From assembly GCA_037386905.1 (NCBI GenBank), contig JARRLQ010000001.1, forward strand, positions 5,947-69,946: a DNA stretch of 64,000 nt, in the 5' to 3' direction. This document shows, one piece after another, positions 48,104 through 48,931 of this stretch. The notes under the pieces are model-generated. The model saw only the letters and a list, made by a program, of their open reading frames with translations, made no database searches and had not been told where the DNA came from. Numbering within the stretch: position 1 is the first letter of the stretch; every line of letters begins with the position of its first letter. Origin of the DNA: Woeseiaceae bacterium (GTDB lineage Bacteria > Pseudomonadota > Gammaproteobacteria > Steroidobacterales > Woeseiaceae). The position numbers and the translations under genes were made by a program.

Positions 48104-48931
48104 ATGAATAACGTTTTCGTCGCACTTTCGTTCGCCATCCTCGTATCTTTTCTGATTGCTTCTTCGCCCGCCTGGTCGCAGGAGGAAGAAGCTGAAAAAG
48201 ACGCGGTGGCGTGCACCATGCAGTACGACCCTGTATGTGGCGTCGACGGACAGACGTATTCCAACGATTGTGTCGCCCGCGTGGCTGGCGTGGATGTTGC
48301 AACGCGTGGGCGCTGTCCGGCGCCGGCGGAAGAAGAGAACGCCTGTGGCGAAGAGTACGACCCGGTTTGTGGCATCAATGGCACCACTTATATCAACGAA
48401 TGCTTCGCCAGGTTGTCAGGCGTGCAGGTGGCCGGCCTCGGTGAGTGCACGCCGAGTGGATGCCCGAGCATCGAAGACCCGGTGTGCGGTATGAATGGCC
48501 GTACGTACATCAACCGCTGCGAGGCTGACGCGAACAGAGTCCCGGTGCAGCGCATGGGCCTGTGCGACATCGAAAACTGCCCGAAGGTTTTTGCACCGGT
48601 TTGCGCTGATGACACGACTTATGACAACGCATGTATGGCCGAGAAGGCCGGCAAGCTCGTCTACACGGAGGGCATCTGCAATGTGCGGCCGTGCCCGTCG
48701 ATTTTCGTACCGGTGTGCGGCTCGGATGGCGTGACTTACAGCAATGCCTGCCAGGCGGAGCGGCGGGGCGTGCGTATCGACTATGCAGGTATTTGTGAGG
48801 GCCAGGGCGAGAACTGCCCGCGCGTTTATGCGCCGGTGTGTGGCATCGACGGCGTTACCTACGAGAACGAGTGCCAGATCAACAATGCAGCCGTCACCAA
48901 GGCCTATGCCGGAGCCTGCATCGGCGACTAA
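48104..48931 (+). CDS. secreted protein with six tandem Kazal-like serine-protease-inhibitor modules
   Basis: Signal peptide [25 protein letters not shown], then six repeats of C-x7-C-G-x-[DN]-G-x-T-Y-x-N-x-C-x14/15-C (e.g. [40 protein letters not shown]). The pattern and spacing match Kazal Cys2-Cys3-Tyr-Cys4-Cys6. Confidence 0.8.
   Translation: [275 protein letters not shown]

Follow-up and report, generated by a model that had tools for sequence, protein, structure and literature searches.

A conserved six-module, two-disulfide Kazal protein of Woeseiaceae as a putative multi-headed serine-protease inhibitor

Results

A gene for six tandem Kazal modules

The stretch of DNA analysed here, in the following called the window, comprises 64,000 nucleotides from a Woeseiaceae bacterium (assembly GCA_037386905.1, contig JARRLQ010000001.1, positions 5,947 to 69,946 of the forward strand), and the gene in question is an open reading frame (ORF) at window positions 48104..48931 on the + strand, which begins with ATG and, stop codon included, encodes a protein of 275 amino acids. 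From its sequence alone, an original prediction had described this protein as secreted and as built from six tandem two-disulfide Kazal-like inhibitor modules. The assignment as the coding sequence of a six-module Kazal protein is based on the ORF list and the translation, on matches to the Kazal_1 model and on 20 syntenic orthologues (collected with one genome per species; alignment counts of 21 refer to these 20 plus the window protein), and competing ORFs that overlap the gene in other frames or on the other strand are short and without support.

The N-terminal 25 residues (48104..48178, + strand) consist of a hydrophobic core followed by an A-W-S|Q site and are predicted to be a Sec signal peptide without a lipobox; a signal peptide as such had also been proposed in the original prediction. 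By the −3/−1 rule, cleavage would occur after residue 25, so that the mature protein would start with QEEE, i.e. with the acidic stretch QEEEAEKD. All 20 orthologues feature a similar hydrophobic signal-like segment at their N-terminus, and none of them has a lipobox.

The 24 cysteines of the protein (37/45/56/71, 81/89/100/115, 120/128/139/154, 159/167/177/192, 197/205/216/231 and 238/246/257/272) fall, in a regular-expression scan, into six units of the pattern C-x7-C-x10-C-x14-C, with x9 as the middle spacing in unit 4. These are exactly the positions first listed for the six modules; the spacing of the last two cysteines, however, which had been given as x14 or x15, is x14 in all six. The modules, all encoded on the + strand, extend over Cys37-Cys71 (module 1, 48212..48316), Cys81-Cys115 (module 2, 48344..48448), Cys120-Cys154 (module 3, 48461..48565), Cys159-Cys192 (module 4, 48578..48679), Cys197-Cys231 (module 5, 48692..48796) and Cys238-Cys272 (module 6, 48815..48919), and are separated by cysteine-free linkers of 9, 4, 4, 4 and 6 residues. 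Module 4 is indeed one residue shorter than the others, because the Gly after its Cys3 is missing (CADDTTY). Its length, 37 or 38 residues from P6 to Cys6, also differs between the 21 orthologues, which is true of no other module, and their consensus retains this Gly (C-G-E-D-G). Pairwise identity between the six modules is only 37–57%.

Kazal fold and pairing of the cysteines

The Kazal domain family is PF00050/PF07648 in Pfam and I1 in MEROPS. The Pfam model Kazal_1 matches the protein with E=1.5e-46 and 156.6 bits (cutoff 21) and Kazal_2 with E=4.1e-35 and 120.1 bits (cutoff 22.8). As both do so in six stretches each, the module pattern is not due to chance, and the comparison with these two profile models, which had been suggested as a check, has a clear outcome. 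A scan against NCBIfam gave sub-threshold noise only. In a sequence search against the PDB, the best single-domain relatives are inhibitors, namely CrSPI-1 (3qtl, E=4.7e-9), LDTI (E=2.2e-8) and GmSPI-2 (E=1e-7), and the top whole-chain scores belong to ovomucoid and the multi-Kazal protein agrin.

An AlphaFold2 (AF2) model, built with 38 homologues, has a mean predicted local distance difference test score (pLDDT) of 81, with mostly 84–96 in the modules (95–96 in module 1) and low values in the signal peptide (below 50) and some linkers. Although the modules are confidently folded, the predicted template modelling score of only 0.37 leaves the geometry between them undefined. Secondary-structure assignment of this model by DSSP gives the pattern E-E-H-E six times, i.e. 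every module has a beta-hairpin and a helix, followed by another strand. In Foldseek comparisons with the PDB, a single module superimposes on the LDTI–trypsin complex with 0.5 Å root-mean-square deviation (rmsd) and a template modelling (TM) score of 0.90, on GmSPI-2 with 1.6 Å, a TM score of 0.83 and 51% identity, and on complexes of the ovomucoid third domain OMTKY3 with SGPB with 1.2 Å. The modelled modules thus have the Kazal fold that structure prediction had been expected to reveal. Follistatin, which came up as the top Foldseek match, was rejected as a tandem-repeat artefact (TM ~0.15, rmsd 17–21 Å).

Alignment with OMTKY3 equates the four cysteines of a module with Kazal Cys2, Cys3, Cys4 and Cys6 and leaves Cys1 and Cys5 without a counterpart, as originally noted, and these two are likewise absent from all 20 orthologues. 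Classical Kazal domains comprise about 56 amino acids with six cysteines (bridged 1-5, 2-4 and 3-6) and a longer Cys4-Cys6 segment, whereas the window modules are 35-residue units with four. Nor do they resemble follistatin-type modules, which have an N-terminal cysteine-rich subdomain similar to epidermal growth factor and a total of 10 cysteines, since there are four per module here and the linkers are cysteine-free. What every module does have is the set Cys2, Cys3, Cys4 and Cys6 with a compact Cys4-Cys6 segment that is typical of GmSPI-2 and domain 1 of CrSPI-1. The six modules are therefore Kazal domains of the two-disulfide, non-classical type, which is an already known variant and not a new one. 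From the superposition of the model on solved homologues at 0.5–1.6 Å, we infer the bridges Cys2-Cys4 and Cys3-Cys6, and the view that these would form a self-consistent pair gains by analogy from GmSPI-2 and CrSPI-1 domain 1, where this set is proven to be functional.

GmSPI-2 from Galleria is a 36-residue Kazal inhibitor with four cysteines and the bridges Cys5-Cys24 and Cys13-Cys39, and strongly inhibits subtilisin and proteinase K (PMC4169406). It shares with the window modules the compact domain (~36 amino acids) with four cysteines and a pair of bridges (predicted in the window modules) that corresponds to Cys2-Cys4 and Cys3-Cys6, but is a single-domain insect silk protein of demonstrated activity, whereas the window protein is bacterial, has six tandem modules and is known from its sequence. 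Domain 1 of horseshoe crab CrSPI-1, with only the bridges Cys1-Cys19 and Cys8-Cys35, was crystallized with its loop in the active site of subtilisin and its Cys1 at P3 (PMC3082530). CrSPI-1 (PDB 3QTL/3PIS) is the best inhibitor match by sequence and aligns over modules 1–2, but is a two-domain arthropod immune protein whose domain 2 has three bridges. The atypical domains of LEKTI and of Phytophthora EPI1a, the latter a stable two-disulfide inhibitor of subtilisin and P69B, represent the opposite variant, i.e. they keep Cys1-Cys5 and lack Cys3-Cys6 (PMC1236909). With ovomucoid, ovoinhibitor and OMTKY3 the protein has in common the tandem arrangement of Kazal domains, each with a P1 residue of its own, and the invariant T-Y-x-N-x-C. 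Between Cys2 and Cys4, 11 of 20 residues in module 1 are identical to OMTKY3, which is good identity, although calling the two almost superimposable was an overstatement; the respective reactive-site loops read C-T-M-Q-Y-D and C-T-L-E-Y-R.

Conservation and selection

The 20 orthologous loci, with protein identities of 59–77%, come from 15 metagenome-assembled genomes labelled Woeseiaceae and five with no label beyond Gammaproteobacteria or Pseudomonadota; the window protein itself has no exact match in the contig index. Exactly six modules and 24 cysteines are present in 19 of the 21 sequences. One or two additional cysteines outside the modules occur in L001 and L020, and orthologue L006 (5758-6711) has seven modules, the additional one, with the loop L-C-T-A-E-Y-R, being a recent N-terminal gain. 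Apart from the length of module 4, the cysteine spacing of the modules is identical in the 20 orthologues, with x14 between Cys4 and Cys6 throughout, and the last four linkers always have 4, 4, 4 and 6 residues. As each module keeps its own sequence character across species despite the low identity between modules, the set of six must predate the radiation of the family.

In the closest orthologue pairs, dN/dS according to Nei and Gojobori is ~0.03–0.05, and with dS near saturation (median ~1.8) it is only relative values of dN that are interpretable. Kazal orthologues diverge in step with neighbouring genes (59–77% identity, compared with 54–72% for yibQ). The gene is thus real, conserved across Woeseiaceae and under strong purifying selection.

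Eight orthologues (L007, L010, L013, L014, L016, L018, L019 and L020) carry a conserved cysteine-free segment, G-D-V-D-L-Q-S-I-F-P...L-A-Q-G-D, within the 25–35 residues that follow the signal peptide and precede module 1. The window protein lacks this segment and has the acidic QEEEAEKD stretch in its place; possible roles of the segment are those of a pro-region or docking motif. Two three-module sequences (P0014 and P0042) were considered as a shorter paralogue family, but are read as truncated calls: their C-terminal tails seem to be frame-shifted, and their source is the same syntenic locus in assemblies of low coverage.

Reactive-site loops and P1 residues

With P1 placed two positions after Cys2, the six loops read C-T-M-Q-Y-D, C-G-E-E-Y-D, C-P-S-I-E-D, C-P-K-V-F-A, C-P-S-I-F-V and C-P-R-V-Y-A, and the P1 series is M, E, S, K, S, R, as the original prediction had it. 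All six modules share Cys at P3, a P-V-C motif with Pro at P4', Thr-Tyr, a spacer Asn equivalent to OMTKY3 Asn33 and a Gly before Cys6. P2 is T, G, P, P, P and P in modules 1–6; the Gly of module 2 stands where Pro prevails among the orthologues. P2' reads Y, Y, E, F, F and Y, i.e. it is aromatic in five of six. The hallmarks of a canonical loop operating by the Laskowski mechanism (Cys at P3, the spacer Asn, Thr or Pro at P2 and an aromatic P2') are therefore present, with module 3 deviating.

Across the 21 orthologues, P1 behaves differently in the two halves of the protein. It is Met in 17/21 sequences in module 1, Glu or Asp in 21/21 in module 2 and Ser in 19/21 in module 3, the most conserved module of all (mean entropy 0.52 bits). 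In modules 4–6, by contrast, P1 is among the most variable positions (2.0–2.2 bits versus module means of 0.57–1.25 bits): in module 4 it is Lys in 12 sequences and Gln in four, followed by Val, Arg, Asn, Glu and Leu, and its entropy reaches 2.16 bits in module 5 (module mean 0.60) and 2.00 bits in module 6 (module mean 0.57). At contact positions, codons also show a dN roughly double that of scaffold codons (medians 0.32 and 0.16), and this pattern, together with the P1 variability of modules 4–6, recalls the hypervariability of contact residues in canonical inhibitors. Half of the P1 set is thus conserved and half is lineage-specific. A putative broad-spectrum array had been read from the P1 residues; only M, E/D and S of modules 1–3 are conserved, however, and K, S and R of modules 4–6 vary so widely among the orthologues that the set of the window protein should not be taken for a fixed design.

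The locus and its surroundings

The Kazal gene lies at the 3' end of a group of genes on the same (+) strand, which consists of an EnvC-like Peptidase_M23 gene (44563..45996, with a true start maybe downstream of 44563; Pfam match, syntenic wherever the flank reaches), a gene for a CtpA-like C-terminal processing protease with Peptidase_S41 and PDZ domains (46093..47313; Pfam E=1.6e-55, syntenic) and one for a YibQ-like divergent polysaccharide deacetylase (47310..48059; Pfam E=1.4e-69), whose stop codon is found 44 nt before the Kazal ATG. Every locus with sufficient flank has the same gene order, i.e. gpsA and secB on the − strand, then envC-like M23, ctpA, yibQ and the Kazal gene on the + strand, and convergent to the latter a DUF87/HerA-like ATPase gene (in about half of the loci; elsewhere AbgT directly follows the Kazal gene), AbgT and Peptidase_M2. 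In 15 of 19 loci, the yibQ-to-Kazal gap is between −11 and 108 nt, and in the other four it is filled by a 203-residue UbiE-like methyltransferase ORF. Such UbiE-like S-adenosylmethionine-dependent methyltransferases (203–205 amino acids) occur between yibQ and the Kazal gene in L007, L014, L017 and L018 as well as in L027 (4353-4970) and L028 (4212-4823). A metagenomic protein, P0005, combines methyltransferase and Kazal Pfam domains in one chain and is suspected to be an assembly or gene-calling fusion of two genes.

Scanning of 47800-49200, an interval that includes the 44-nt gap, revealed no terminator-like site on the + strand. A promoter scan around the Kazal gene returned no sigma-70-like site and is uninformative with respect to a promoter of its own. 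Between the Kazal gene and the convergent gene for a DUF87/HerA-like P-loop ATPase (49014-51407, − strand; 797 amino acids, with a long charged and apparently coiled-coil-like C-terminal part) there is an inverted repeat with 31-nt arms (48929..49016; core GGGGACAGTCGCTTAATATT, loop ~26 nt, RNA folding energy −47.3 kcal/mol, z=−10.2). A second copy (62973-63048), which has the same arms but another loop, separates two other convergent genes. This repeat looks like a palindromic element of the REP/MITE kind (repetitive extragenic palindrome or miniature inverted-repeat transposable element), which perhaps also serves as a bidirectional terminator.

The window spans the region of the chromosomal origin, with mnmG (2574-4421, −), mnmE (11496-12815, −), yidC (12831-14615, −), dnaA (15272-16633, +), dnaN (16833-17936), recF (18000-19067) and gyrB (19157-21646), and is therefore core chromosome; the Kazal gene is situated ~32 kb from dnaA and matches its neighbours in GC content. 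The window also contains two M16 peptidase genes (7891-9552 and 9549-10943), an M13 (23085-25130) and an M28 peptidase gene (25595-27229, −) and genes for an AbgT transporter (51415-52977, −), an M2 dipeptidyl carboxypeptidase similar to angiotensin-converting enzyme (53079-54905, −) and a POT/PTR2 peptide transporter (54922-56484, −). The density of genes for peptidases and for the uptake of peptides is thus high, in keeping with the proteolytic way of life that has been proposed for Woeseiales.

Kazal proteins in other bacteria

The statement that Kazal inhibitors are known mainly from animals, oomycetes and apicomplexans is out of date. An exhaustive HMMER search of 1.84 billion representative sequences retrieved 8,988 clusters with E<=1e-3, of which 291 reach E<=1e-30; very long multi-Kazal proteins are frequent among them, and the matches from bacteria and archaea (Myxococcota, Sorangium, Alphaproteobacteria, Nitrosopumilus, Woeseiaceae) already include many named as Kazal-type serine protease inhibitor domain proteins. 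One of these is a Woeseiaceae relative, MDG2376664.1, with the NCBI name 'Kazal-type serine protease inhibitor domain-containing protein', and the closest orthologues are named 'hypothetical protein' by JGI. Some bacterial multi-Kazal proteins (P0012, P0083 and P0194) have spurious JGI/IMG names such as 'coxsackievirus/adenovirus receptor' or 'plastocyanin'. Arrays with four cysteines per module form the smaller part: of 133 top matches that were newly retrieved and in which modules were detected, seven have <=4.3 and 12 have <=4.5 cysteines per module. The C-x7-C-x10-C-x14-C module itself also occurs in Alphaproteobacteria, Myxococcota, Nitrosopumilus and diatoms, and four-cysteine modules that are 62–77% identical to module 1 of the window protein are present in the diatom Skeletonema and another protist.

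The other bacterial and archaeal multi-Kazal proteins have the same domain, but differ in module number, additional cysteines or cysteine-rich inserts and gene context. None of them is linked to envC-ctpA-yibQ, and no recurring partner gene was seen beside the Kazal genes of Alphaproteobacteria, Myxococcota and Nitrosopumilus. Kazal domains as a type are well established, and databases already carry the bacterial relatives under this name. The envC-ctpA-yibQ linkage of the Woeseiaceae gene is the one new feature. In a distant subfamily of Bacteroidota type, with five modules of five cysteines each and P1 mostly Arg or Lys, the Kazal gene is found in two of four loci directly downstream of Peptidase_S8 genes of the type IX secretion system (T9SS). 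In these loci (L032 1-5879 and L035 1124-5291) it shares the strand with one or two large genes for T9SS-sorted Peptidase_S8 proteins, and PorP/SprF is encoded nearby. These may be pairs of genes for a bacterial protease and its inhibitor.

In the searchable literature, we found no work on bacterial Kazal proteins or on Kazal domains in Woeseia, and broader queries led to eukaryotic Kazal work only. The earlier remark that no bacterial multi-Kazal inhibitor has been functionally characterized is consistent with the literature searched, which leaves most subscription papers outside, and is not thereby proven.

Discussion

The most probable function of this protein is, in our view, that of a Sec-exported, probably periplasmic, multi-headed canonical serine-protease inhibitor, a reading to which we would assign a probability of roughly 0.65 on the basis of homology. 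The exported protein would be a string of six beads, each a two-disulfide Kazal domain with Cys2-Cys4 and Cys3-Cys6 only, and the periplasm would be its default location, because there is no further sorting signal. Most likely, each module presents a canonical, Laskowski-type loop with Cys2 as P3 and P1 two positions later, which would block a serine protease by docking into its active site in the manner of a substrate. By precedent, subtilisin-like (S8) and chymotrypsin-like (S1) enzymes would be the likeliest targets, with modules 1–3 and their conserved P1 residues (M, E/D and S) directed against conserved targets and modules 4–6 with their highly variable P1 against changing ones. The adjacency to S8 genes in Bacteroidota provides an independent hint, by analogy, at such an inhibitory role.

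Woeseiaceae, for which detrital protein is considered the main source of nutrition, rank among the most abundant bacteria of marine surface sediments, and Woeseiales have 50–60 peptidase genes per Mb, including S1 and S8, in a survey that left out inhibitors (PMC7082342). The array could shield envelope proteins from the cell's own exported proteases or from foreign ones in this protease-rich sediment. A possible functional analogue is ecotin (MEROPS I11), a Sec-exported periplasmic inhibitor thought to protect Gram-negative bacteria from exogenous proteases (PMC9904509). An ecotin-like periplasmic role of the Kazal array is conceivable by this parallel, but fold and mechanism are unrelated (ecotin is a homodimer with two binding sites per protomer), and no ecotin family appeared among the Pfam, NCBIfam or PDB matches of the window protein.

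Several points weigh against inhibition as the function. Non-inhibitory proteins such as follistatin and agrin also have Kazal-like domains, and both were top whole-chain matches. Module 3 has no aromatic P2' but an atypical, acidic Glu-Asp at P2'-P3', which is invariant in the orthologues, and may be specialized or non-inhibitory. In P1-variant studies of OMTKY3, Glu and Ser at P1 are unfavourable for most model proteases. The protease encoded next to the Kazal gene is of the S41 type, which to our knowledge is not a Kazal target, and no S8 or S1 gene is among the ~40 window ORFs scanned. Activity data for any bacterial Kazal protein did not turn up in the literature searched, with most subscription papers outside it. 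Finally, linkers of four residues may prevent several proteases from being bound simultaneously. With respect to these linkers, residues N-terminal to P3 are dispensable, because CrSPI-1 domain 1 binds subtilisin canonically with Cys1 at P3 (PMC3082530).

The alternative that survives best, even though we regard it as unlikely, is that the modules are binding or structural domains without inhibitory activity, as in follistatin, agrin, SPARC or the loops of OATP proteins, and that the protein serves as a rigid, disulfide-rich spacer or as a ligand-binding protein in the periplasm or at the cell surface. The very short linkers, the acidic or small P1 residues of modules 2, 3 and 5, the atypical loop of module 3 and the best whole-chain matches to follistatin and agrin could all be accommodated in this way. 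Yet these whole-chain matches, with their poor superposition, reflect only the tandem arrangement of Kazal units, and the cysteine-rich N-terminal subdomain of the follistatin type is missing. Moreover, the closest single-domain relatives by both sequence and fold are all true inhibitors, and the spacer Asn, Cys at P3, Pro or Thr at P2 and an aromatic P2' have been retained.

A different kind of explanation, which appears improbable to us, starts from the neighbourhood of the gene: the protein could be a dedicated partner of the envelope module next to it, co-transcribed with envC-ctpA-yibQ, and regulate CtpA or shield its substrates, thereby affecting the turnover of cell-wall hydrolases rather than acting as a general anti-protease. 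The same-strand position of the gene, closing envC-ctpA-yibQ at its 3' end in all Woeseiaceae loci that have upstream flank, the short gaps in most of them (otherwise a single methyltransferase ORF) and the absence of a + strand terminator-like site from the region scanned are in line with this proposal. So is the conserved P1 in modules 1–3, which fits a fixed endogenous target, and the Bacteroidota multi-Kazal gene also follows serine-protease genes. However, the gene may share strand and neighbourhood with the others simply because it was inherited at an operon's end, and the stretch from yibQ to the Kazal gene can accommodate an inserted methyltransferase gene. As far as is known, the widespread envC-ctpA-yibQ cluster does its work in other Gammaproteobacteria without a Kazal gene. 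Furthermore, we know of Kazal inhibitors only against the catalytic-triad proteases of families S1 and S8 and of no protein inhibitor of an S41 protease with its Ser-Lys dyad. Combining this proposal with the inhibitor function, the protein could be a lineage-specific component of an envC-ctpA-yibQ envelope operon, in which modules 1–3 bind and gate CtpA or protect its cell-wall-hydrolase substrates and modules 4–6 fend off foreign proteases. We see little chance of this being correct, but if CtpA gating were true, S41 proteases with their Ser-Lys dyad would have their first protein inhibitor, and a physiological role would be defined for a bacterial Kazal protein for the first time.

That the gene was recently acquired from a eukaryote by horizontal transfer, or is eukaryotic contamination in the assembly, with no settled bacterial role, can be dismissed as highly improbable, since—although Kazal domains are best known from eukaryotes and Skeletonema and another protist have such similar modules—the gene resides on the core chromosome with the GC content of its neighbours and with a bacterial-type signal peptide, at the same locus in 20 species, diverging in step with adjacent genes and under strong purifying selection. 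The survey of homologues, which had been suggested with such an acquisition in mind, thus did find a family of syntenic orthologues and led to the rejection of a recent transfer. An ancient exchange between protists and bacteria, in either direction and with the gene long established since, is possible.

For the understanding of how Kazal domains work, a canonical multi-headed inhibitor would change nothing. With their 35 residues, two disulfides and naturally varied P1, the compact modules could nevertheless become small scaffolds for engineered protease inhibitors, and among the many uncharacterized bacterial Kazal proteins, the Woeseiaceae array could be a manageable one to begin with. If the proposed function is true, a six-headed inhibitor would be a family-wide part of how these bacteria survive the extracellular proteases that they themselves and their neighbours release.

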